Positions 40,557 through 54,895 of a DNA stretch of 54,895 nt are shown in pieces. Under the pieces are notes generated by a model. That model ran no database searches, was not told the origin of the DNA, and saw only the letters and a list, made by a program, of their open reading frames with translations. Positions within the stretch are counted from its first letter, which is position 1. Each line of letters starts with the position of its first letter. The translations under genes and the position numbers were made by a program. Source of the DNA: Vicinamibacterales bacterium (GTDB taxonomy: Bacteria; Acidobacteriota; Vicinamibacteria; Vicinamibacterales; SCN-69-37); contig DASZVJ010000105.1 of assembly GCA_035547155.1 (NCBI GenBank), positions 1-54,895 of the forward strand, given 5' to 3'.

Positions 40557-41905
40557 GAGATCGACGGAAAGTCGGCGAGCACGTCCGCGACGTGCCGCGA
40601 CGGATCGGGACGCAGGTGGCGGGGAAGAGCGGCCTGCGGCTCGGGTATCTCCGCGGCCGCCGTCATGATGCGCACGAACGCGTCGGTCATGCGCGCTTCG
40701 CTGTGCTCGGCCTGCCAGTACGCGCGTGCGGCCCGGCCCAGCGAGGTGCGCAACTCGGCGTCCATGGCCAGCCGTCGCATGGCGAGCGTCAGCGAGTGAT
40801 CTTCGTCGACGATGTCGATGGCAACGGTGACGGGATCGAGCGCGGGGTGCGAGCGGGACCAGTCGCGCGGGTCGAGCGATGGCACGTGCGCCTGATGCGC
40901 GAGCGAGATGACGATCGTCGGACGTGCGGCCGCGATCGCGCGCACCCAGGGACCTGACGTTTCGACCGCCGTCGGCCAGCGGAGGTTGAGGCTCACGTCG
41001 ACCGCCGCAATCGCGCGATCGAACGCGTCATCGTCGAGCACGCCGGCAAGCACGATCGCGTCGCGCACGCCGAGCGCGTCCGCGAGGCTGGCGATGTCGA
41101 CCGCTGGATCGGCCGCGCCGGCGAGCAGCAACCGCGCGCGCGGCATCCGTTGCCGCGTGGCCGCGAACGCCCGAAGAATCTGCGGAATCCGCTTGTCGGC
41201 GGTCAATCCGCCGAACGCGCCGAAGACGATCGCCTCGTCGGAGAAACCGAGCGCCGCGCGCGCGGCGCGGCGCTCGTCGTCCGCGAGCGGATCGTCGCGA
41301 CCGTCGCCGAGCGGCACGTACTCGATGCGGGCGTCTGGTGAGGCCGCGGCGAGCGCCGCCGCGCCGCCGCGTGTATGGACGGCGGTCACGCGCGAGGCGG
41401 CGACGACGGCTCGCGTCATCGGCCAGAGCGCGTAGTACGGCCCGTCGAACCCGGCGATGCCGAGCTCGGCCGCCGCGACGGGCGTGTCCGGCTGATCGAA
41501 CGCCAGCTCCGCGCGGTAGTCAGCGGTCCGATGGCGCGAGAGCAGCGCGTGGCCGCGGGCGTGGTGCAGCCGCGCGTCGTGCAGCACGGCGAGTCCGGGC
41601 CAGCGAAACAGATAGGGCCAGATGTACGCGTGCTGCGTCGAGTTGCCGAGCTGATAAATCGGGAGATCGTACTGTGCGCGCGCGTGACGCCAGACGAGCT
41701 CGTGCGCGGAGAGGACGCGCGTGCGTCCGGGCTCGGGCGGCGCGGGTGATGCGGCGCGATCGATCGGCGCGGCCGGGACGGCGCGTGCGTCGACGAACAC
41801 GTCGATCGCGTGGCCGGCGGCGGCGAGCCGCGCGACGAGCGCGGCGGATCGGCCCGCGATGCCGCTCGACTGCGGCGGCCACGGACTGAGCCACGCGAGA
41901 CGCAT
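40541..41905 (-). CDS. Glycosyltransferase, GT4-like
   Basis: [37 protein letters not shown] is a GT-B N-domain start. 454 aa. Confidence 0.7.
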
Positions 41906-41948
41906 CGCATTAGTTTACCTGGGCGTCGCCGCAACCGCTCGCATCGCA

Positions 41949-41978
41949 TTGACTTGGCCGACGCTCGTTCGTTAGCAT
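41949..41978 (+). promoter_or_regulatory. Candidate sigma-70-type promoter of the nuo operon
   Basis: TTGACT (41949-41954), an 18-nt spacer, then TAGCAT (41973-41978), about 100 nt upstream of nuoA. Confidence 0.3.
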
Positions 41979-41980
41979 CT

Positions 41981-42007
41981 GAGCTTGTTCGAGCGGCGAA
42001 CAAGCTC
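41981..42007 (+). promoter_or_regulatory. Perfect 11-bp inverted repeat (5-nt loop) directly downstream of the candidate -10, either an operator or a leader hairpin
   Basis: gagcttgttcg-agcgg-cgaacaagctc. Confidence 0.5.
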
Positions 42008-42076
42008 GCCGTGCGCCGCTGCTATCGTCCGTCTTCGCACCGCCCATGCGGGGACGTCCCGGGAGACCCCTGATCG

Positions 42077-42445
42077 ATGGAAGGTTTTCTTCCCATCCTT
42101 ATCATGATCGCCCTCGGCGTCGGATTCGCCGCCGGCAACGTCTTCCTGTCGCAGTTTCTCGGTCCCCGCAAGCCGTCTCCGGAGAAGAGCGCGCCGTACG
42201 AGTGCGGCATGCCGCCGGTCGGCGACGCGCGCGAGCGCCAGTCCGTCAAGTTCTACCTCGTGGCGATGATCTTCCTGCTCTTCGACATCGAGGTCGCGTT
42301 CTTGTATCCGTGGGCGATTGCGTTTCGCGATCTCGGCATCATCGGCTACTGGCAGATCGTGACGTTCTTCCTTCTGCTGGTCACGGGCTATGTCTACGTG
42401 TGGCGCAAGGGCGTATTTGATTGGAGCGGCGAGCGATCGCGCTGA
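42077..42445 (+). CDS. nuoA: NADH-quinone oxidoreductase subunit A
   Basis: [33 protein letters not shown]. Confidence 0.95.
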
Positions 42446-42472
42446 CGTCCGTCGTTTCGATCGGTTCACATC

Positions 42473-42937
42473 ATGCCTGAGCTGGAAATTCCCGTTCTGA
42501 CCACGACCGTCGAGAAGATGGTCCAGTGGGCGCGTCGATCGGCCATCTGGCCGGTGACGTTCGGTCTGGCGTGCTGCGCGATCGAGATGATGGCGATGAG
42601 CTGCGGCCGCTACGACATCGCGCGCTTCGGCGCGGAAGTGTTCCGCGGATCGCCGCGTCAGTCGGACCTGATGATCATCGCGGGCCGGCTGTCGCGCAAG
42701 ATGGCGCCCGTGCTGCGCCGCATCTACGACCAGATGCCCGAGCCCAAGTGGGTCATCTCGATGGGCGCGTGCGCGAGCTGCGGCGGCGTGTTCGACAACT
42801 ACGCGATCGTGCAGGGTGTCGATCAGGTCGTGCCGATCGACGTCTACGTCCCGGGCTGTCCGCCGCGTCCCGAGGCCCTCATCTACGGCATCGTCCAGTT
42901 GCAGCGGAAGATCGATCAACAGCGGATGAGCGCGTAG
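42473..42937 (+). CDS. nuoB: NADH-quinone oxidoreductase subunit B
   Basis: [37 protein letters not shown] and [11 protein letters not shown] (the N2 cluster cysteines). Confidence 0.95.
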
Positions 42938-42939
42938 AC

Positions 42940-43551
42940 ATGGCTTCGACCGACGCCTCTCCGATTCTCGACGTGCTGCGGGCCGCCGTGCCCGACGCCG
43001 CGCTCAACGCCGCGGCCGCCGTCGACATGCCGACCATCGTCATCGATCGCGAGCACGCGCTCGAAGTGTTCGCCGCGCTGCGGGATCATCCGGCGCTGCA
43101 ATTCGCGCTGTTGTTGGACGTGACGGCCGTCGATCGGCTGCCGGCCGAGCCGCGCTTCGAGATCGTGTATCACCTCGCGTGTCTCGGCGAGGCGTTCGCG
43201 TCCGGCACGCCGGCGCCCGCGCGCCGCTTGCGCGTGAAGATTGGGCTGCCCGGCCACGACGCGCGTGTGACGAGCGTGACGTCGCTCTATCCTGGCGCCG
43301 GATGGCCGGAGCGCGAAGTCTTCGATCTGTTCGGCGTGTTCTTCGAGCATCACGCCGACCTGCGCCGGATCCTGACGCCCGAAGAATGGACCGGTCATCC
43401 GCTGCGGAAGGATTATCCGGTGCAGATCCGGAAGTCGACGCAGTCGTGGGAGCCGATTCAAGTGTCGGCGGAGGAATTCGCCGAGAACATCCGGCGGCAG
43501 CGTGCGGAAGCGGAGCGCCGCGCGCGCGAGGCGGGCCAATCGGGTGACTGA
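42940..43551 (+). CDS. nuoC: NADH-quinone oxidoreductase subunit C
   Basis: LLDVTAVD, FEIVYHL, GAGWPEREVFDLFGVFFEHH and PLRKDYP. Start at ATG 42940, 3 nt after the nuoB stop. Confidence 0.9.
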   Translation: MASTDASPILDVLRAAVPDAALNAAAAVDMPTIVIDREHALEVFAALRDHPALQFALLLDVTAVDRLPAEPRFEIVYHLACLGEAFASGTPAPARRLRVKIGLPGHDARVTSVTSLYPGAGWPEREVFDLFGVFFEHHADLRRILTPEEWTGHPLRKDYPVQIRKSTQSWEPIQVSAEEFAENIRRQRAEAERRAREAGQSGD

Positions 43552-44143
43552 TCGCGACGTCGTGCGGCACGTCTGCCTCGAGGCGGCCGCGCTGCATCAG
43601 CGCATCGCCGAGATCGGCGCCGACGCCATCGTGAAGGCGGCCGGCGTGATTGGCGAGGCGCTGGCGTCGGGGCACAAGGTGCTGGTGTTCGGCAACGGCG
43701 GCAGTGCGGCCGATGCGCAACACTTCGCCGCGGAGCTGGTCGGGCAGTTCAGCCGGCGCGCCGATCGTCCCGCGCTGCCGGTGATGGCGCTGACGACGGA
43801 TCTGGCGATCATGACGGCGGTCGCCAACGATTTCGGGTTCGCGGCGGTGTACGCGCGTCAGATCGAGGCGCTCGGCACGGCCGGCGACGTGGCGCTGGCG
43901 ATCACGACCAGCGGCCGCTCGGCGAACGTGAACGAAGGCCTCCGATGGGCGCTCGATCGATCGTTGACGACGATCGCGTTGACCGGGGGCGATGGCGGGG
44001 AGAGCGGCCGTCTGGCGGACGTGCACGTCAACGTGCCGGACGGCAACCCGCAGCGCGTGCAGGAAGTGCAGCAGACGATCCTGCACGTGATCTGCGAGCT
44101 GGTCGAGCGGCGGCTCGCGGGGGCGCCGGGGCGAGAAGCGTGA
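43544..44143 (+). CDS. gmhA: SIS-domain protein, phosphoheptose (sedoheptulose-7-phosphate) isomerase GmhA-like (DiaA-like not excluded)
   Basis: KVLVFGNGGSAADAQHFAAELVG, MALTTD, NDFGF..VYARQIEALG..GDVALAITTSGRSANV, ALTGGDGG and RVQEVQQTILHVICE. The GTG at 43544 places GNGGS at about residue 50, as in E. coli GmhA. The gene overlaps nuoC by 8 nt and ends 3 nt before nuoD. An alternative in-frame start lies at 43502. Confidence 0.75.
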   Translation: MTDRDVVRHVCLEAAALHQRIAEIGADAIVKAAGVIGEALASGHKVLVFGNGGSAADAQHFAAELVGQFSRRADRPALPVMALTTDLAIMTAVANDFGFAAVYARQIEALGTAGDVALAITTSGRSANVNEGLRWALDRSLTTIALTGGDGGESGRLADVHVNVPDGNPQRVQEVQQTILHVICELVERRLAGAPGREA

Positions 44144-44146
44144 GAC

Positions 44147-45334
44147 ATGCCTGAGATTCGCACCGAAACGATGACCGTCAACATGGGGCCGCAGCACCCC
44201 AGCACGCACGGCGTGCTGCGCCTCGTGCTGGAGCTCGACGGCGAGACGATCGTCTCGCTCGATCCGACGATCGGCTTCCTGCACACGGGCATCGAGAAGA
44301 CCGCCGAGCAGAAGAAGTGGCAGCAGGTGATCCCGCTCGTCGAGCGCATGGACTACCTGGGCCCGCAGTCGAACAGCCTGGCGTTCTGCTTGTCGGTGGA
44401 GCGGCTGCTCGGCATCGAGAGCACCATTCCCGATCGCGTGACGTACATCCGCGTGCTCATCGCGGAGCTGCAGCGGCTCAGCAGTCACCTCGTCTGGCTC
44501 GGCACGCATGGCATGGAGATCGGCGCGATCTCCGTGATGATGTACTGCTTCCGCGAGCGCGAGCAGCTGCTCAACATCAACGAGATGCTCGCCGGTTTCC
44601 GCATGTTCCCGAGCTACATGCGAATCGGCGGCCTACGCGAGGATCTGCCGCGCGGCTTCCACGAGGCCGTCACGGCGTTTCTCGACAAGTTCCCGGGCAA
44701 GCTGGACGAGTACGAGAAGCTGCTGACGAAGAACAACGTGTGGCTGAAGCGCACGAAAGGCGTCGGCAAGCTATCGCGCGAGGACACGATCGCGATGAGC
44801 CTGGTCGGTCCGATCGCGCGCGCCGTCGGCATCCCGTACGACGTGCGCAAGATGTTCCCGTACCTCAAGTACGACACGTTCGACTTCAGCGTGCCAACGG
44901 CGACCGACGGTGACGTCTTCGCGCGCTACACGGTCAAGGTCGCGGAGATGCGGCAGAGCGTGAAGATTGCCAAGCAGGCGCTCGAGCGCATCTCGCCGAC
45001 GGGCAAGTTCGACTGCGGCGACTACCGCATCGTCCCGCCGCCGAAGGATCGCGTGTACACGGAAATGGAAGCGCTCATCCAGCACTTCCTGCTGTACTCG
45101 CAGGGGTTCAACGTGCCGGCCGGCGAGGCGTACGTGCCGGTCGAAGGGCCGCGCGGCGAGCACGGGTTCTACATCGTGTCGGATGGCGCGAACCGTCCGA
45201 TCCGCGTGAAGGCGCGCGCGCCGTCGCTCATGGCGGTGCAGGGGCTGTCGAAGATGGTCGTCGGCGGCCTCGTCGCGGACTTGATCGCGATCATCGGCTC
45301 GACGGACGTCGTCATGGGAGATGTGGATCGATGA
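44147..45334 (+). CDS. nuoD: NADH-quinone oxidoreductase subunit D
   Basis: MGPQHPSTHGVLRL, GFLHTGIEK, ERMDY, RIGG and PRGE.G.YIVSDG. Confidence 0.95.
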   Translation: MPEIRTETMTVNMGPQHPSTHGVLRLVLELDGETIVSLDPTIGFLHTGIEKTAEQKKWQQVIPLVERMDYLGPQSNSLAFCLSVERLLGIESTIPDRVTYIRVLIAELQRLSSHLVWLGTHGMEIGAISVMMYCFREREQLLNINEMLAGFRMFPSYMRIGGLREDLPRGFHEAVTAFLDKFPGKLDEYEKLLTKNNVWLKRTKGVGKLSREDTIAMSLVGPIARAVGIPYDVRKMFPYLKYDTFDFSVPTATDGDVFARYTVKVAEMRQSVKIAKQALERISPTGKFDCGDYRIVPPPKDRVYTEMEALIQHFLLYSQGFNVPAGEAYVPVEGPRGEHGFYIVSDGANRPIRVKARAPSLMAVQGLSKMVVGGLVADLIAIIGSTDVVMGDVDR

Positions 45335-45939
45335 GCTTTCATCCCGCCATGGACTACGGGCGTGGGCGCCACCAGTCCGCGCGCGCGCTGCCGGAAGAGG
45401 GACCGGCGTTCGTCTACACGGCAGAGAACCGCGCGAAGCTCGACGAGATCTGCGCGCGCTATCCACCTGAACGGCGCAAGTCGGCCATCCTCGCCGCGCT
45501 CTATCTCGCACAGCACCAGCAGGGCTATCTCACGCGCAACGCGATGCGCCACGTCGCCGAGGCGATCGGCTGCACGGCTGCAGAGGTCGAGGACGTCGTC
45601 ACGTACTACACGATGTTCTACACGCGGCCGGTCGGGAAGTACGTGCTGACCGTCTGCCGTACGCTCTCCTGCGCGCTGATGGGCGCCGAGCGCGTCACCG
45701 AAGAGCTGGCCGAGGCGCTGGGCGTCAAGCCCGGTGAGACCGACGCGTCCGGCACGTTCACGCTGCACGAGGTCGAGTGCCTCGGCGCGTGCGATCGCGC
45801 GCCGGTCATCGGCGTCAACGATCACTGGCAGGAGTGCCAGAAGCCGGAGGACGTCCGCGCGCTCATCGACGGTCTGCGAAAGAATGGGCCGTCCGTGCTG
45901 ACCGGCTGTCACTTGAAGGTCGCGGGAGAGACACGATGA
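45331..45939 (+). CDS. nuoE: NADH-quinone oxidoreductase subunit E
   Basis: SAILAALYLAQ, VCRTLSCALMGA and VECLGACDRAPV (the 2Fe-2S cysteines). ATGA overlap with nuoD. Confidence 0.9.
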   Translation: MSFHPAMDYGRGRHQSARALPEEGPAFVYTAENRAKLDEICARYPPERRKSAILAALYLAQHQQGYLTRNAMRHVAEAIGCTAAEVEDVVTYYTMFYTRPVGKYVLTVCRTLSCALMGAERVTEELAEALGVKPGETDASGTFTLHEVECLGACDRAPVIGVNDHWQECQKPEDVRALIDGLRKNGPSVLTGCHLKVAGETR

Positions 45940-47249
45940 GCATGGAACCGCTGCTCACGCGGTACGTCCGCGAGCCCAACAGCTTCACGCTCGATTTCTA
46001 CACGCAGCATGGCGGATACAACGCCCTCCGCAAAGCGCTCGGCATGACGCCCGATGCGGTGATCGACACCGTGAAAGCGTCCGGGCTGCGCGGCCGCGGC
46101 GGCGCGGGCTTTCCGACCGGCATGAAGTGGCAGTTCGTCGACAAGAAGTCGGCGAAGCCGCGCTACATCTGCTGCAACGCGGACGAGAGCGAGCCCGGCA
46201 CGTTCAAGGATCACGTGCTGATGGAGCGCAACCCGCACCTGCTGTTCGAGGGCTGCCTCATCGGCTGCTACGCGATCGGCGCGAAGGTCGCTTACATCTA
46301 CATCCGCGGCGAGTTCTACCACGTGCAGGAAGTGCTCGAGGCCGAGCTCGCCAAGGCGCGCGCCGCGGGCTTCGTGGGCAAGAACATCTTCGGCTCGGGC
46401 TTCGACTGCGAGATCTACGTCCATCGCGGCGCCGGCGCGTACGAAGCGGGCGAGGAGACGGCGCTCATCGAATCGCTCGAGGGCAAGCGCGCGCAGCCGC
46501 GGCTGAAGCCGCCGTTCCCGGCCGTCGAAGGCCTCTACAACTGTCCGACGGCGGTCAACAACGTCGAGACGCTCTGCAACGTGCCGCTCATCATCGAGCA
46601 CGGCGCGGAGTGGTACGCCAAGCTCGGCCCGGAGAAGAACGGCGGACCGAAGCTCTACTGCATCAGCGGCCACGTCAAGCGGCCAGGCGTCTACGAAGCG
46701 TCGATGTCGACGACGCTGCGCGAGCTCGTGTACGACGACAAGTTCGGCGGCGGCATCCGCAACGGCCACGCGCTCAAGTGCGTGATCCCCGGCGGATCGT
46801 CCGTGCCCGTCCTCCTGCCCGATCAGCTCGACATTCCGGCCAGCTTCGACGGGGTCGCCGCGGCCGGCTCGCTCCTCGGATCGGCCGGCATCATCGTCAT
46901 GGACGAGACGACGTGCATGGTGTGGGCGGCGGAGAACCTGCTGCATTTCTACCGTCACGAGTCGTGCGGCAAGTGCACGCCGTGCCGCGAGGGCGGTGCG
47001 TGGCTGCACAACATCCTCGGCAAGATCGAGCGCGGTGAAGGGCAGATGAAAGATCTCGATCTGCTGCTCTCGATTGCGGGCAACATCACGGGCAAGACGC
47101 TCTGCGCGTTCGGCGATGCGGCCGCGACGCCGGTGCTGACGACGGTGAAGACGTTCCGCGCCGAGTACGAGGCGCACATTCGTGAAGGCCGGTGCACGGT
47201 GCCGGCGGACTGGCGCGCGTCGCGCCGCGTCCTGACGGCGGCCCACTAG
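45936..47249 (+). CDS. nuoF: NADH-quinone oxidoreductase subunit F
   Basis: GLRGRGGAGFPTG.KW, CNADESEPGTFKD, GAGAYEAGEETALIESLEG and ESCGKCTPCREG. ATGA overlap with nuoE. Confidence 0.95.
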   Translation: MSMEPLLTRYVREPNSFTLDFYTQHGGYNALRKALGMTPDAVIDTVKASGLRGRGGAGFPTGMKWQFVDKKSAKPRYICCNADESEPGTFKDHVLMERNPHLLFEGCLIGCYAIGAKVAYIYIRGEFYHVQEVLEAELAKARAAGFVGKNIFGSGFDCEIYVHRGAGAYEAGEETALIESLEGKRAQPRLKPPFPAVEGLYNCPTAVNNVETLCNVPLIIEHGAEWYAKLGPEKNGGPKLYCISGHVKRPGVYEASMSTTLRELVYDDKFGGGIRNGHALKCVIPGGSSVPVLLPDQLDIPASFDGVAAAGSLLGSAGIIVMDETTCMVWAAENLLHFYRHESCGKCTPCREGGAWLHNILGKIERGEGQMKDLDLLLSIAGNITGKTLCAFGDAAATPVLTTVKTFRAEYEAHIREGRCTVPADWRASRRVLTAAH

Positions 47250-47251
47250 TC

Positions 47252-48289
47252 ATGCCATTCGGAATCACCCCCGAGCTCATCGCGAACCTCGGCGTCATCG
47301 TCGTCGTCTTCTTCGCGCTGCAGATTTCCGCGGCCGTGCTCGTCTACATGGAGCGCAAGGTCGCCGCGTTCGTCCAGCAGCGCTTCGGTCCGTATCTGGT
47401 CGGGCCGCGCGGCATGATGCAGCCGCTGGCGGACATCGTCAAACTCCTGTTCAAAGAGGAGCTGCGGCCGAAGTCCGCCGATCCGATCCTGTTCTACGTC
47501 GCGCCGGTGCTGAGCGCGGTCGCGGCGTTCGCGGCGTTCGCGGTCGTCCCGTTCGGCGCGGATACGACGTTCTTCGGCCTGCTCGATCGTCCGATCCATC
47601 TCGCGGCGGCGGACGTCAACGTCGGCCTGCTCGTGATCTTCGCGATCACGTCGATGGGCGTGTACGGGATTGTGCTGGCCGGATGGGCGTCGAACAGCAA
47701 GTACTCGCTGCTCGGCGGGCTGCGCTCGTCGGCGCAGATGATCAGCTACGAGATCTCGTACGGGCTGTCGTTCGCGGCCGTGATCATGCTGGCCGGATCG
47801 CTCTCGCTCGGGCACATCGTCGATCAGCAGGCCGGCTACTGGTTCGGGTTCATCCCGCGCTGGTTCATCTTCCTGCAGCCGCTCGGCTTCTTCATCTTCC
47901 TGACGGCCGGCGTCGCGGAGACGAACCGCGCGCCATTCGACTTCCCGGAAGCGGAGCAGGAGCTCGTCGCGGGCTATCACACCGAGTACAGCTCGATGAG
48001 CTTCGCGCTGTTCTTCCTGGCCGAGTACGTGAACATGGTCACCGTCTCGGCCGTCGCGACGGACCTGTTCCTCGGCGGCTGGCACGGCCCGTTCCTGCCG
48101 GAGTGGCTCGGCTGGATCTGGTTCCTGATCAAGCTGTTCGCGATTCTGTTCTTCTACATCTGGATGCGCTGGACGTTGCCGCGGTACCGCTACGACCAGT
48201 TGATGGAGTTCGGCTGGAAGTATCTGCTTCCGGCCGCGGTGATCAACCTGCTGGTCACGGCCTTCGTGGTCGTGTACTACGGCTTCTAG
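47252..48289 (+). CDS. nuoH: NADH-quinone oxidoreductase subunit H
   Basis: [72 protein letters not shown] and RYRYDQLM. The start lies 2 nt after the nuoF stop. Confidence 0.95.
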
Positions 48290-48297
48290 AGCAGCTC

Positions 48298-48807
48298 ATG
48301 GACGCCCTTTTCTTCTGGATTCTCGCAGCCGGCGCGGTGGTGGCCTCGCTGCTCGTCATCGGGCAGCGCAACCCGATGTACAGCGTGCTGCTGCTGATCG
48401 TCTCGTTCGGCGCGCTGTCGGGCCTCTACATCCTGCTCGGCGCGCCGTTCGTCGCCGCGATTCAGATCATCATCTACGCCGGCGCCATCATGGTGCTCTT
48501 CCTCTTCGTCGTCATGCTGCTGAACGTGCCGACGGAGACGCCGCAGGAGGGCCGGCTGCGCCTGCTCACCGGCGCGGGGCCGCGACGGTTCGGCGCCGTG
48601 CTCTCGGTCGTGTTCATCGGCGAGCTGGCGTGGGCGTTCAGGCGCATCCAGGCCGCGGCGCTGCCCTCGGGCGCGCCGGAGACGAGCGTCCACGCGATCG
48701 GCCTGAAGCTGTACCGCGACTACGCGTTCGCGTTCGAAGCGACGTCGGTGCTGATCCTCGTGGCGATGGTCGGCGCGGTCATCCTGGCGCGGAAGGAAAC
48801 GAAGTGA
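48298..48807 (+). CDS. nuoJ: NADH-quinone oxidoreductase subunit J
   Basis: [51 protein letters not shown]. Confidence 0.9.
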
Positions 48808-49115
48808 TCCCGGAGCCCACGTTCAACTCGTATCTGATCCTGTCGGCCGTGCTGTTCTCGATCGGCACGGCGGGCGTGTTCCTGCGGCGCAATCTGATCA
48901 CGATCCTGCTGTCGGTCGAGGTGATGCTCAACGCGGTGAACCTCACCTTCGTGGCCGCCGATCGCTTCTTCCAGACCGTCGACGGGCAGATCATCGTGTT
49001 CTTCGTCATGACCGTCGCGGCCGCGGAGGCCGCCGTCGGCCTGGCGATCATCATCGCGCTGTTCCGGCACAAGGAAACGCTCAATCCGGACGCCTTCACG
49101 TCGTTGAAGTGGTGA
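48804..49115 (+). CDS. nuoK: NADH-quinone oxidoreductase subunit K
   Basis: [34 protein letters not shown] and [17 protein letters not shown]. The GTG start overlaps the nuoJ stop (GTGA). Confidence 0.9.
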
Positions 49116-49119
49116 CCGC

Positions 49120-51144
<2,025 letters not shown>

Positions 51145-51265: not shown

Positions 51266-51277
51266 GTGGGAGGCCGC

Positions 51278-52885
51278 GTGCTGACGTCTCTCGTCGTGCT
51301 GCCGATCATCGGCGGCCTGCTCGTCCTGCTTCTCGGCAAGGGCCGCGACGGCCTGGCGCGGCAGCTTGCGCTGGCCGTCTCGCTCGTGGTGTTCGCCATC
51401 AGCGTCGCGATCTGGGCGCGCTTCGATGCGTCGCCGACGGCGGCCGCGTACCAGTTCGTGGAGCAGCACAGCTGGCTGCCGGACTTCGGCATCTCGTACC
51501 ACGTCGGCATCGACGGCATCAGCCTGCTGCTCGTGGTCCTGACGACGTTTCTGACGCCGATCGCGCTGCTGTGCTCGTGGGAATCGGTCGACGAGCGCGT
51601 GAAGGAGTTCTCGTTCTTCATGCTGCTGCTCGAGGCGGCGATGATCGGCGTGTTCGTCTCGCTCGATCTGTTCCTGTTCTACGTGTTCTGGGACGCGATG
51701 CTGATCCCGATGTACTTCCTGATCGGCATCTGGGGCTACGACCGGCGCATCTACGCGAGCATCAAGTTCCTGCTCTACACGATGGCCGGTAGCGTGCTCA
51801 TGCTCCTGGCGATCATCTGGATCGCGTACTACCATCGCGCGGTCACCGGCGTGCCGAGCTTCGATCTCACGGACCTGCTCGCGCTGAACGTGCCGGCCTC
51901 CGTGCAGACGTGGCTCTTCCTCGCGTTCGCCGTGGCGTTCGCGATCAAAGTGCCGCTGTTCCCGTTCCACACGTGGCTGCCGGACGCGCACGTCCAGGCA
52001 CCCACGGCCGGCTCCGTCATCCTCGCCGGCGTGCTGCTGAAGATGGGCACGTACGGCCTGCTGCGATTCGCGTTCCCGCTCTTCCCGCAGGCGGCCGCGT
52101 ACTTCACGCCGTGGATCGCCGTGCTGGCCGTCATCGGCATCGTCTATGGCGCACTGGTGGCGATGGTGCAGCCGGACATGAAGAAGCTGGTGGCGTACTC
52201 GTCGGTGAGCCACCTCGGCGTCGTCGTGCTCGGACTCTGCGCGTTGACGATCACCGGCGTGCAGGGCGCCGTCTATCAGATGCTCGCGCACGGCATCTCG
52301 ACCGGCGGGCTCTTCCTCATCGTCGGCATGCTCTCCGATCGCCGGCACACGCGCCTGATTGCGGAGTTCGGCGGCTTGAAGGCCGTCATGCCGAAGCTCG
52401 TCGGCGCGTTCCTGCTCGTGACGCTCGCGTCGATTGCGCTGCCAGGCACGAACGGCTTCATCGGCGAGTTCCTGATTCTGATCGGCACGTTCACGAGCCA
52501 CACGCTCGATCGCGCGCACGTGTTCGCCGCGATCGCGGCGACGGGCGTGATCTGGTCGGCCGTCTACATGCTCTGGATGTTCCAGCGCGTGAACTACGGG
52601 CCGGTGACGAACGACAAGAACCGCGGCCTGCGCGATCTGAGCGTGCGCGAGTGGCTCGTGATCGCGCCGATCTGCGCGATGGCCATCGTCATGGGCGTCG
52701 TGCCGGGGATTTTCCTGAAGCCGATGGAGCCGGCCGTGCGCCGCACCGTCGAGCACATCGTCGCGTCGCCAGGACCGGTCAACGCGGGGCTGCGTGCGAC
52801 GATGCCGGCGTTGGGCGTGCCGGCGCCAGCGGCATCCGAGGCGGAACGTGCTGACGCGGCGCCGATGACCGCGTCCGCGCGCTGA
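51278..52885 (+). CDS. nuoM: NADH-quinone oxidoreductase subunit M
   Basis: GIDGISLLLVVLT, FYVFWDAMLIPMYFLIG.WG, KVPLFPFHTWLPDAHVQAPTAGSVILAGVLLKMG and AYSSVSHLG. GTG 51278 is preceded by gggagg (51268-51273). Confidence 0.9.
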   Translation: MLTSLVVLPIIGGLLVLLLGKGRDGLARQLALAVSLVVFAISVAIWARFDASPTAAAYQFVEQHSWLPDFGISYHVGIDGISLLLVVLTTFLTPIALLCSWESVDERVKEFSFFMLLLEAAMIGVFVSLDLFLFYVFWDAMLIPMYFLIGIWGYDRRIYASIKFLLYTMAGSVLMLLAIIWIAYYHRAVTGVPSFDLTDLLALNVPASVQTWLFLAFAVAFAIKVPLFPFHTWLPDAHVQAPTAGSVILAGVLLKMGTYGLLRFAFPLFPQAAAYFTPWIAVLAVIGIVYGALVAMVQPDMKKLVAYSSVSHLGVVVLGLCALTITGVQGAVYQMLAHGISTGGLFLIVGMLSDRRHTRLIAEFGGLKAVMPKLVGAFLLVTLASIALPGTNGFIGEFLILIGTFTSHTLDRAHVFAAIAATGVIWSAVYMLWMFQRVNYGPVTNDKNRGLRDLSVREWLVIAPICAMAIVMGVVPGIFLKPMEPAVRRTVEHIVASPGPVNAGLRATMPALGVPAPAASEAERADAAPMTASAR

Positions 52886-52890
52886 CATCC

Positions 52891-54327
52891 ATGCTGAACC
52901 AGATCATCCCCATCGTTCCCGTCCTGATCGTCGCGCTGTCGGCGTGCGCGGTGCTGCTGGCCGAGGCGTTCCGCCGGCAGGGTGATTGGATGCCGGTCGG
53001 CTGGCTCGGGCTCATCGGCCTGGCCGGCGGCATCGTGACGTCGATCTCACTGTGGGATCGCAACGCGACGGGCTTCGGCGTCATCACGCTCGACAACTAC
53101 GCGCTGTTCTTCAACGTGACGATCTGCGCCATCGGCGCGCTGACGATCCTCTTGTCGTCCGGCACCGCCGAGCGCGATCAGCTGCCGACGGGGGAGTACT
53201 ACGCGCTGATGCTCTTCTCGCTCGCGGGCATGATGCTGATGGGATCGACGCGCGATCTGCTCGTCATCTTCGTCGCGCTCGAGATCATGTCGCTCGGCGT
53301 CTACGTGCTGACCGGGATCAAGCGGACGAGCGAACAAGGCGCCGAGGCCGCGTTCAAATACTTCGTCATGGGCGCGTTCTCCAGCGCGTTCTTCCTCTAC
53401 GGCATCGCGCTCGCGTACGCGGTCACCGGCACGACGAAGCTCGACGAGATCGGGCTGCGCGTGGCCGGCGCCGTCAACGATCCGAACATCCTGCTGATCC
53501 TCGCGATGGTGATGCTGCTCGTCGGCTTCGCCTTCAAGGTCTCGGCCGTGCCGTTCCACATGTGGACGCCGGACGCGTATCAGGGCGCGCCCACGCTCGT
53601 GACCGGCTTCATGTCGACCGGCATCAAGGCCGCGGCGTTCGCCGCGTTCGTTCGCGTGTTCCTCTCGTCGTTCGAGCCGCTGCGCGGCGACTGGATGCCG
53701 ATGCTCTCGGCGATCGCCGGCCTGACGATGATCCTCGGGACCGTCGTCGGCGTGGCGCAGTCGAGCGTCAAGCGCATGCTCGCGTACTCCAGCATCGCGC
53801 ACGCCGGCTACCTGCTCGTCGGGCTCATTGCTGCGAGCTCGGCGGGGAAGGCGTCGATCCTCTTCTATCTCGTGGCCTACGCCGTGACCAACCTCGGTGC
53901 GTTCGGCGTGCTCGCCGCGCTCTCGACGCCCGATCGGCCGCACGACGACATCCGCGATTTCGCGGGTCTCTGGCGCGAGCGACCCGGCCTGGCCGGGCTG
54001 CTGACCGTGTTCCTGCTCTCGCTCGGCGGCTTCCCGCCGACCGTCGGCTTCGTCGCGAAGTGGTACATCTTCAACGCGGCGATCCAGGAGAACCTGATCG
54101 GCCTCGCCGTGTTGGGCGTGCTCACGAGCGTCGTCTCGGTCTTCTTCTACTTCCGCATCATCGTGCAGATGTACATGTCCGACGAGACCGCGCCCGGTCA
54201 TCGGCCGCGCGTGCCGGCCGTCGCGCTCGCCGGCATGCTCATCGCGCTCGTCGTCGTGTTCTACCTGGGCATCGTGCCTGGACAGCTGCTGACGGCGGCC
54301 GCCGATTCGGTCGCGACGATTTTCTGA
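52891..54327 (+). CDS. nuoN: NADH-quinone oxidoreductase subunit N
   Basis: LEIMSLGVYVL, EAAFKYFVMGAFSSAFFLYG, KVSAVPFHMWTPDAYQGAPT and AYSSIAHAGY. Confidence 0.95.
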   Translation: MLNQIIPIVPVLIVALSACAVLLAEAFRRQGDWMPVGWLGLIGLAGGIVTSISLWDRNATGFGVITLDNYALFFNVTICAIGALTILLSSGTAERDQLPTGEYYALMLFSLAGMMLMGSTRDLLVIFVALEIMSLGVYVLTGIKRTSEQGAEAAFKYFVMGAFSSAFFLYGIALAYAVTGTTKLDEIGLRVAGAVNDPNILLILAMVMLLVGFAFKVSAVPFHMWTPDAYQGAPTLVTGFMSTGIKAAAFAAFVRVFLSSFEPLRGDWMPMLSAIAGLTMILGTVVGVAQSSVKRMLAYSSIAHAGYLLVGLIAASSAGKASILFYLVAYAVTNLGAFGVLAALSTPDRPHDDIRDFAGLWRERPGLAGLLTVFLLSLGGFPPTVGFVAKWYIFNAAIQENLIGLAVLGVLTSVVSVFFYFRIIVQMYMSDETAPGHRPRVPAVALAGMLIALVVVFYLGIVPGQLLTAAADSVATIF

Positions 54328-54409: not shown

Positions 54410-54850
54410 ATGACGTCTCACACGCCGACCGATCGCGTGCTGCCCGACGAGCCGATCTACCGGCCGATCGAGCGCTTCTGGCCGTACGCCGAGCTGTCCG
54501 AGCAGCCGACCGAAGAGGAGCTCGCGCGCCTGCATCCGGAGCTGCGCGAAGTGCTCTTCGGGGCGCCGTCGCTGCCGTTCTCGATCTCGATGGTCTTTCG
54601 CGCGTTCGACGGGCCGGATTATGAGCGCGCCGTCGCGATCGCGAAAGCGTCGGACGAGTACATCGAGACCGTCGTCGACGGCGTCACGCGCCACCGCGCA
54701 CGATTCTTTCCAGGCCCGCGAGCGCTCGATCTGCGCAATCTGTGGGAGATCGTCCACCGGTTTCCGGAGACGGAGGTCCTGCTCGACGATCGGCCGGTGC
54801 CGTACGCGAAAGAGCTCTGGCTGCCGTTGATCTGGTTGCTGATTTGGTGA
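54410..54850 (+). CDS. Hypothetical protein
   Basis: 146-aa ORF with a composition that looks like coding sequence. No recognisable motif. Hydrophobic C-terminal tail (LWLPLIWLLIW). Confidence 0.45.
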   Translation: MTSHTPTDRVLPDEPIYRPIERFWPYAELSEQPTEEELARLHPELREVLFGAPSLPFSISMVFRAFDGPDYERAVAIAKASDEYIETVVDGVTRHRARFFPGPRALDLRNLWEIVHRFPETEVLLDDRPVPYAKELWLPLIWLLIW

Positions 54851-54895
54851 GCGTGCGGGAGCGGCGAGGACCGGAGGCGGGGGAGGTTGAGGGAC

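Follow-up and report, generated by a model that had tools for sequence, protein, structure and literature searches.

gmhA is an ordinary gene for a cell-envelope sugar enzyme, D-sedoheptulose-7-phosphate isomerase, which carries out the first step of lipopolysaccharide (LPS) heptose synthesis. Structures of stand-alone GmhA are available from Pseudomonas aeruginosa (1X92), Burkholderia pseudomallei (2X3Y/2XBL), and Neisseria gonorrhoeae (5I01), and stand-alone gmhA genes are found either free or in a gmhA-hldA-hldC-gmhB/LPS cluster. The canonical nuo/nqo operon of complex I, in turn, comprises 14 genes, as in Escherichia coli, with a fused nuoCD, or Thermus thermophilus (nqo1–14). In the DNA described here, contig DASZVJ010000105.1 of a Vicinamibacterales bacterium (assembly GCA_035547155.1; the whole stretch of 54,895 nucleotides that was analysed is called the window), gmhA is located inside the complex I operon. 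The relative order of the nuo genes is the same as in the canonical operons (A-B-C-D-E-F-H-J-K-L-M-N), but an unrelated biosynthetic gene, gmhA, is present between nuoC and nuoD, and nuoG and nuoI are located elsewhere.

The function of this gene is ordinary. What is unusual is the gene order: one of the best conserved operons of bacteria contains an unrelated biosynthetic gene in overlapping reading frames, and an entire order of abundant soil Acidobacteriota has retained this arrangement. A full-text search of the literature found no description of gmhA within nuo, and the nuoC-gmhA-nuoD order appears to be unreported in the searchable literature. The protein is most likely a real GmhA whose gene passively rides the transcription and translation of nuo, with no role in complex I. 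New elements of the present description are a deletion scar in a genome of the same genus, a count of losses on a tree of NuoB, NuoC, and NuoD, and the grouping of the embedded, free, and xenologous copies in the GmhA tree, as well as a contig join that places a kinase, a ligase, and a GT9 transferase next to the operon, and a negative sample at the level of the phylum.

Distribution and history of the nuoC-gmhA-nuoD order

For 61 relatives from the same family and order, the location of GmhA was compared with that of the orthologous NuoD and the loci were read, as were those of four additional genomes of the order from the phylum sample; the order name, Vicinamibacterales, was taken from the source names of near relatives. 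This survey of gene neighbourhoods, proposed in the earlier note, found nuoC-gmhA-nuoD in 38 related genomes, which represent all families of the order with this type of nuo operon. In an independent assembly (GCA_964447255.1), the counterpart of the protein is 95% identical and the gene order is again nuoA-B-C-SIS-nuoD. The junctions are tight in most genomes with the insert. An identical 8-nt overlap of nuoC and gmhA is present in 11 of the 33 loci with the insert, and at the junction of gmhA with nuoD (34 loci) the genes overlap in 13 cases, are separated by 0–15 nt in nine, and by 29–296 nt in 12.

The sample outside the order, made up of one genome of the same class and 35 of other Acidobacteriota in many families, contained no gmhA beside nuo; three of these 36 genomes have a classical gmhA-kinase-adenylyltransferase(-gmhB) cluster. 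A wider scan of contigs with the family alignment detected the arrangement in four metagenome-assembled genomes (MAGs) of Acidobacteriota and in no other phylum among the matches listed, which were mostly distant GmhAs of other phyla and served as an outgroup rather than as a census. The nuoC-gmhA-nuoD junction is thus usable as a synteny marker for the order.

Eight of the near-complete members of the family and order have no orthologous nuo operon (G019, G012, G043, G045, G048, G052, G055, and G058) and contain either no NuoD or only a NuoD paralogue that is 41–48% identical. A gmhA of the clade typical of the order is missing from all eight. The only copy in G019 is a foreign one (44% identical) next to hldE, G012 and G055 show no more than weak SIS matches, and the other five have no gmhA match.

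In 15 genomes of the same family, nuoC adjoins nuoD with no insert; their NuoD is 81–97% identical to that of the window. One of them, G001, belongs to the same genus (NuoB 99%, NuoC 92%, and NuoD 97% identical) and shows how the gene was lost. When its DNA is aligned with the window (blastn), a block corresponding to 42927–43561 (90.6% identity) is followed directly by one corresponding to 44107–44470 (96.4%), which marks a clean deletion of 545 bp from the interior of gmhA, with the first 18 and the last 37 nt of the gene surviving. The scar retains the region of the nuoC stop codon and the 37-nt 3′ end of gmhA ahead of the nuoD ATG, and this retained stretch probably carries the ribosome-binding region of nuoD. 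Another contig of G001 carries a gmhA that groups not with the Vicinamibacterales clade but near sequences from Thermoanaerobaculia and Desulfuromonadaceae, and is therefore a foreign replacement. No recognisable gmhA scar is present in the nuoC–nuoD spacers of the other 14 insert-free genomes, which are either 2–15 nt long or consist of short-repeat hairpins. The latter are often short tandem arrays that form inverted repeats, for example in L124:2959–3081 (G032), L136 (G028), L128 (G015), and L127 (G014), with GGCCCAA repeated four times and followed by three copies of TTGGGCC, or with AAACTCC arrays facing GAGTTTA arrays. They resemble octamer and heptamer arrays found in the genome of the window and look like an intergenic hairpin element typical of the lineage.

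In the tree of concatenated NuoB, NuoC, and NuoD, the insert is present in all lineages outside the family of the window, and the insert-free state occurs only within that family, where it requires eight changes, of which at least four are forced by well-supported branches. The simplest history that these sequences suggest would be one ancient insertion followed by repeated loss. The GmhA phylogeny that the earlier note had proposed places all 28 embedded copies in a single clade, with a support of 100 in the Shimodaira–Hasegawa-like approximate likelihood ratio test (SH-aLRT). Free copies from six genomes (G005, G013, G024, G035, G047, and G050) are found within the same clade; that of G005 is located directly beside the heptose kinase gene (hldE), and that of G050 lies 5 kb from the kinase. 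Since these two copies lie in a heptose context, the same orthologue works away from nuo. A recent horizontal acquisition of gmhA by the genome of the window was considered and rejected, given the single clade of embedded copies and the scar in the sister genome. One GmhA from a MAG labelled as Verrucomicrobia (L104, QHNJ01000120.1) nests on a long branch in the Vicinamibacterales clade, which may be due to horizontal transfer or to a binning error.

Identity of the embedded protein and its pathway

The open reading frame (ORF) of 199 residues between nuoC and nuoD matches the Pfam family SIS_2 (PF13580) with an E-value of 2.8e-24, and the two best NCBIfam models are those of phosphoheptose isomerase, NF010546 (192.6 bits, cut-off 276), and of gmhA, TIGR00441 (167.2 bits, cut-off 209.45). 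GmhA structures in the PDB match the protein over its full length, with E-values from 7e-43 to 2e-36. An AlphaFold2 model built on an alignment of 45 sequences (predicted local distance difference test, pLDDT, 95.2) superimposes in Foldseek on P. aeruginosa GmhA with a template modelling (TM) score of 0.92 and a root-mean-square deviation (rmsd) of 1.4 Å, with no extra element in relation to that protein (199 versus 197 residues). The comparison with the solved GmhAs as a group gives TM scores of 0.85–0.92, rmsd of 1.3–1.8 Å, and 38–42% identity, the length and the SIS fold being the same.

In GmhA from N. gonorrhoeae, zinc is bound by His61, Glu65, and His183 of one subunit and by Gln175 of its neighbour, Glu65 and His183 are required for lipooligosaccharide synthesis, and the Ser/Thr loop binds phosphate (PMC5387315). 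Glu, Gln, and His form the conserved catalytic set; E. coli DiaA has Ser in place of the Glu (PMC4697000). All three motifs that had been read from the sequence are present in the window protein, namely GNGGSAADAQHFAAEL at residues 50–65, TTSGRSANV at 121–129, and QEVQQTILH at 173–181. His60, Glu64, Gln173, and His181 align with the gonococcal residues His61, Glu65, Gln175, and His183, with spacings of 4 and 8, and they are invariant, as is the phosphate loop Thr122-Ser123-Gly124-x-Ser126, in alignments of 18 and of 45 relatives. Thus, by the features of its sequence and of its predicted fold, the window ORF is a genuine GmhA of the active type, sharing with the stand-alone enzymes the H-E...Q-H set, the Ser/Thr phosphate loop, and the pathway partners, and it would be expected to act as an isomerase.

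The MAG to which the window belongs is fragmented (3.9 Mb, 276 contigs) and 95% complete; a search of it with GmhA returned a single homologue, the window ORF. As to the other heptose genes, which the earlier note had proposed to look for, the remaining route to ADP-L-glycero-β-D-manno-heptose was found, with kinases, adenylyltransferases, GmhB, and HldD (Table 1), and there is neither a second gmhA nor another candidate for the isomerase. A second heptose cluster on contig C228 (4853–6956, L146) has the order gmhB-kinase-adenylyltransferase and lacks gmhA. Two kinase paralogues, scoring about 340 and about 290 bits, are found in most of the 61 sampled relatives, which suggests two heptose branches supplied by one isomerase.

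The protein is named 'SIS domain-containing protein' at NCBI and 'D-sedoheptulose 7-phosphate isomerase' at JGI; the bare NCBI label results from the missed equivalog cut-offs. Automatic annotation under-calls these GmhAs in this way, and in the reconstruction of pathways for such genomes gmhA should be sought inside nuo.

Explanations for the position of gmhA in the operon

The explanation that we favour is that gmhA would have become lodged between nuoC and nuoD in the ancestor of Vicinamibacterales, in an operon that sits in a neighbourhood of envelope-glycan genes. With no visible promoter of its own, the gene most likely depends on the nuo promoter for its transcription and on coupling to nuoC for its translation, and its 3′ end would carry the initiation region of nuoD. 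Its product would serve the ADP-heptose/LPS-core pathway of the organism. The position would persist because gmhA can be removed only if another gmhA takes over and the deletion leaves the translation of nuoD intact, and the gene would be lost when the two coincide. Repeated deletion in the order, once in a sister species, makes gmhA look like a passenger rather than a part of complex I. If so, the locus offers a clean natural case of a passenger gene trapped in its host operon, with one ancient insertion and at least four to eight independent losses, including a recent scar that spares exactly the translation signals of the neighbours, and with loss accompanied by a foreign replacement. No new question about complex I is raised by it.

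Other explanations differ in how well they agree with these observations. Misassembly of the MAG might have put gmhA between nuoC and nuoD, and an arrangement unique to this assembly was considered in the earlier note; fragmentation of the genome would be in line with it. However, the same order is shared by the independent assembly and 37 further related genomes, the nuoC/gmhA junction consists of overlapping reading frames, and G001 retains both ends of gmhA as a scar, so that the chance of an artefact is negligible and this candidate was set aside. A DiaA-like paralogue would bind DnaA as a non-catalytic SIS tetramer and set the timing of replication initiation. E. coli DiaA (2YVA, 4U6N) has the same fold and a tetramer-type SIS arrangement, its structures match the window model with TM scores of 0.90–0.91 at 39–40% identity, and the DiaA model ranks third in NCBIfam. 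Its score of 141 bits, though, is well under the cut-off of 352, and the catalytic Glu absent from DiaA (PMC4697000) is retained in the window protein and invariant together with Gln173 and His181, which contradicts a role of the DiaA type. There is also no link to replication genes, and accepting this identity would leave the genome with no GmhA at all while the rest of the pathway is present. This option of the earlier note is extremely improbable. Also put forward there was the recruitment of the protein by complex I, as an accessory or assembly factor. Such a factor might be a subunit or a chaperone of assembly, perhaps tied to the split-off nuoG and nuoI, and might or might not have kept isomerase activity. 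The location of gmhA exactly between the genes of two Q-module subunits, with junctions of the coupling type, its conservation across the order, and the otherwise unusual operon lacking nuoG and nuoI are compatible with such a role, and a second, non-catalytic role of GmhA has been suggested in Neisseria (PMC5387315). Yet gmhA does not strictly co-occur with its host operon. The same operon is present in 15 family members with no gmhA in it, the scar in G001 records a recent loss with NuoB, NuoC, and NuoD still 92–99% identical, and orthologues of the clade are also found next to hldE rather than in nuo. Furthermore, the active site is fully conserved, the model has no added surface element, and no other gmhA is available to the pathway, which is otherwise complete. 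In view of the insert-free operons and the deletion within the genus, a structural or assembly role in complex I is very unlikely. In a narrower form, which we regard as slightly more doubtful still, an embedded GmhA tetramer would have a second, non-catalytic job in the biogenesis of the split complex I in those lineages that keep gmhA, possibly by chaperoning NuoC and NuoD during coupled translation, and the lineages that lost the gene would have compensated otherwise.

An adaptive co-regulation is the alternative in which GmhA is normal but its position is selected, the supply of heptose for the LPS core being tied to the expression of complex I and, through it, to growth or the respiratory state; translational coupling would fix the ratio of GmhA to NuoC and NuoD. 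The order is kept in all families that have this type of nuo operon, most junctions are tight or overlapping, and envelope-glycan genes flank the operon on both sides. Regulation of gmhA by physiology also exists elsewhere, as expression of gonococcal GmhA responds to anaerobiosis and iron (PMC5387315). Nevertheless, at least four to eight independent losses took place in one family, including the deletion in the same genus, and replacement copies are located elsewhere, some of them beside hldE. The 29–296 nt spacers before nuoD in 12 of 34 loci indicate that strict coupling is not maintained, and no further heptose gene has joined the nuo operon. We thus consider selection for this position unlikely. 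The suggestion of the earlier note that a heptose gene is expressed together with respiration holds for the identity of the gene and for the signs of joint expression: the gene is an intact and sole GmhA, its pathway is present, and it is tightly packed among the nuo genes, lacking any promoter- or terminator-like site of its own. What that note had named as speaking against an unusual role, ordinary GmhA features together with the presence of the other heptose genes, is largely what was found.

Some observations weigh against the passenger explanation. The window GmhA scores under every NCBIfam equivalog cut-off. However, the free gmhA of G001 is likewise under the cut-offs, with 194 bits for NF010546 and 180.9 for TIGR00441, so the low scores reflect divergence at the level of the phylum and not a special property; an equivalog cut-off is an annotation threshold and not a biochemical feature. 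Neofunctionalisation, for which the sub-threshold score might be taken, was rejected on the same grounds, as the free xenologous copy is equally low and the catalytic residues are all invariant. Ten relatives keep a heptose kinase with no recognisable canonical GmhA, so the link between gmhA and the pathway is not absolute in the lineage. Five genomes of the family (G014, G015, G016, G031, and G032; 84–100% complete) have a full-score heptose-7-phosphate kinase and no canonical GmhA. The best candidate in G015 (L143:435–1040) is a divergent SIS protein of 201 residues, with 87 bits for TIGR00441, in which the catalytic Glu is replaced by Asp and Gln by Glu; genomes of this kind may use a non-orthologous or divergent isomerase, or their pathway may be fed in another way. 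Co-transcription and translational coupling of gmhA with nuo, in turn, are proposed from the spacing of the genes only. Finally, a neutral reason for retention seems plausible to us, but the long retention across the order could reflect an advantage instead of inertia.

Features of the locus and its surroundings

The coordinates of the features are collected in Table 1. Every coordinate initially given for the SIS ORF, including the 8-nt overlap with nuoC and the 3-nt gap before nuoD, was borne out. The 3′ end of nuoC reads GGT GAC TGA, and the stop codon of gmhA (TGA, 44141–44143) is followed by GAC and then by the nuoD ATG at 44147. The GTG at 43544 was chosen as the start of gmhA over an upstream GTG at 43502, because homologues start at the same V/M-T-D-R residues, two of them with an in-frame stop codon just upstream. 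In a scan of 41500–45500, the only promoter-like site is that before nuoA (41949–41978); no terminator-like site was found in this region, and no promoter-like site inside gmhA.

Table 1. Coordinates of the features of the window and of related genes on other contigs of the genome (a contig is named where the feature lies outside the window).
Feature	Position	Strand	Remarks
Promoter-like site of nuoA, TTGACT-18-TAGCAT	41949..41978	+	Upstream of nuoA; consensus match only
nuoA	42077..42445	+	PF00507 in the L142 orthologue; 78–99% identity to nuoA of relatives
nuoB	42473..42937	+	Oxidored_q6, 9.7e-30
nuoC, 30-kDa subunit	42940..43551	+	Complex1_30kDa, 2.2e-40; stop TGA 43549–43551
nuoC/gmhA 8-nt overlap, GTGACTGA	43544..43551	+	gmhA GTG start within the last nuoC codons
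gmhA, putative D-sedoheptulose-7-phosphate isomerase, 199 aa	43544..44143	+	H60, E64, Q173, H181; phosphate loop T121–S126
gmhA interior deleted in same-genus G001, 545 bp	43562..44106	+	Flanks 43544–43561 and 44107–44143 left as scar
nuoD, 49-kDa subunit	44147..45334	+	Complex1_49kDa, 9.3e-107
nuoE	45331..45939	+	
nuoF	45936..47249	+	
nuoH	47252..48289	+	
nuoJ	48298..48807	+	
nuoK	about 48804..49115	+	
nuoL	49120..51144	+	
nuoM	about 51266..52885	+	
nuoN	52891..54327	+	
Contig-end overlap, 141 nt	54755..54895	.	100% identical to the start of reverse-complemented contig C158
Heptose-7-phosphate kinase	C158:6131–7078		343.8 bits, cut-off 345
Second heptose-7-phosphate kinase	C228		289.8 bits
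Adenylyltransferase	C11		Above cut-off
Adenylyltransferase	C228		
GmhB phosphatase	C228		
HldD epimerase	C29		317.6 bits, above cut-off
GT9 heptosyltransferase and Wzy_C-type O-antigen ligase	C158		Directly upstream of the C158 kinase

The complex I operon of the window is the sole nuo operon of the genome. It contains neither nuoG nor nuoI, for which no space is left between nuoF and nuoH or between nuoH and nuoJ (45936–48310). A short NuoG-like gene is found on contig C11 (5892–7379; 375.6 bits versus a cut-off of 470, with the middle of the model unmatched), and nuoI on contig C118 (7422–7799; 151 bits, above the cut-off), so complex I is spread over at least three loci.

The statement that no other heptose-pathway gene is nearby holds within the window but not on the overlapping contig C158, which carries the kinase, the O-antigen ligase, and the GT9 transferase; the apparent absence arises because the contig ends there. 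At its end, the window shares 141 identical nt with the end of C158, which looks like an assembly break at k = 141, and C158 is collinear with the sequence downstream of nuoN in the relative G023. The content of C158 comprises purH, two PMT/ArnT-like GT-C transferases, the heptose kinase, the O-antigen ligase, GT9, a TPR protein, and ispE. The 141-nt identity and the collinearity place the kinase, ligase, and GT9 genes about 5.7–9 kb past nuoN, roughly 16 kb from gmhA, and a gmhA–kinase spacing of 12–20 kb is found on single contigs of many relatives. Right after nuoN, an ORF of 146 residues (54410–54850) is kept in the same place in G023, with 67% identity (tblastx).

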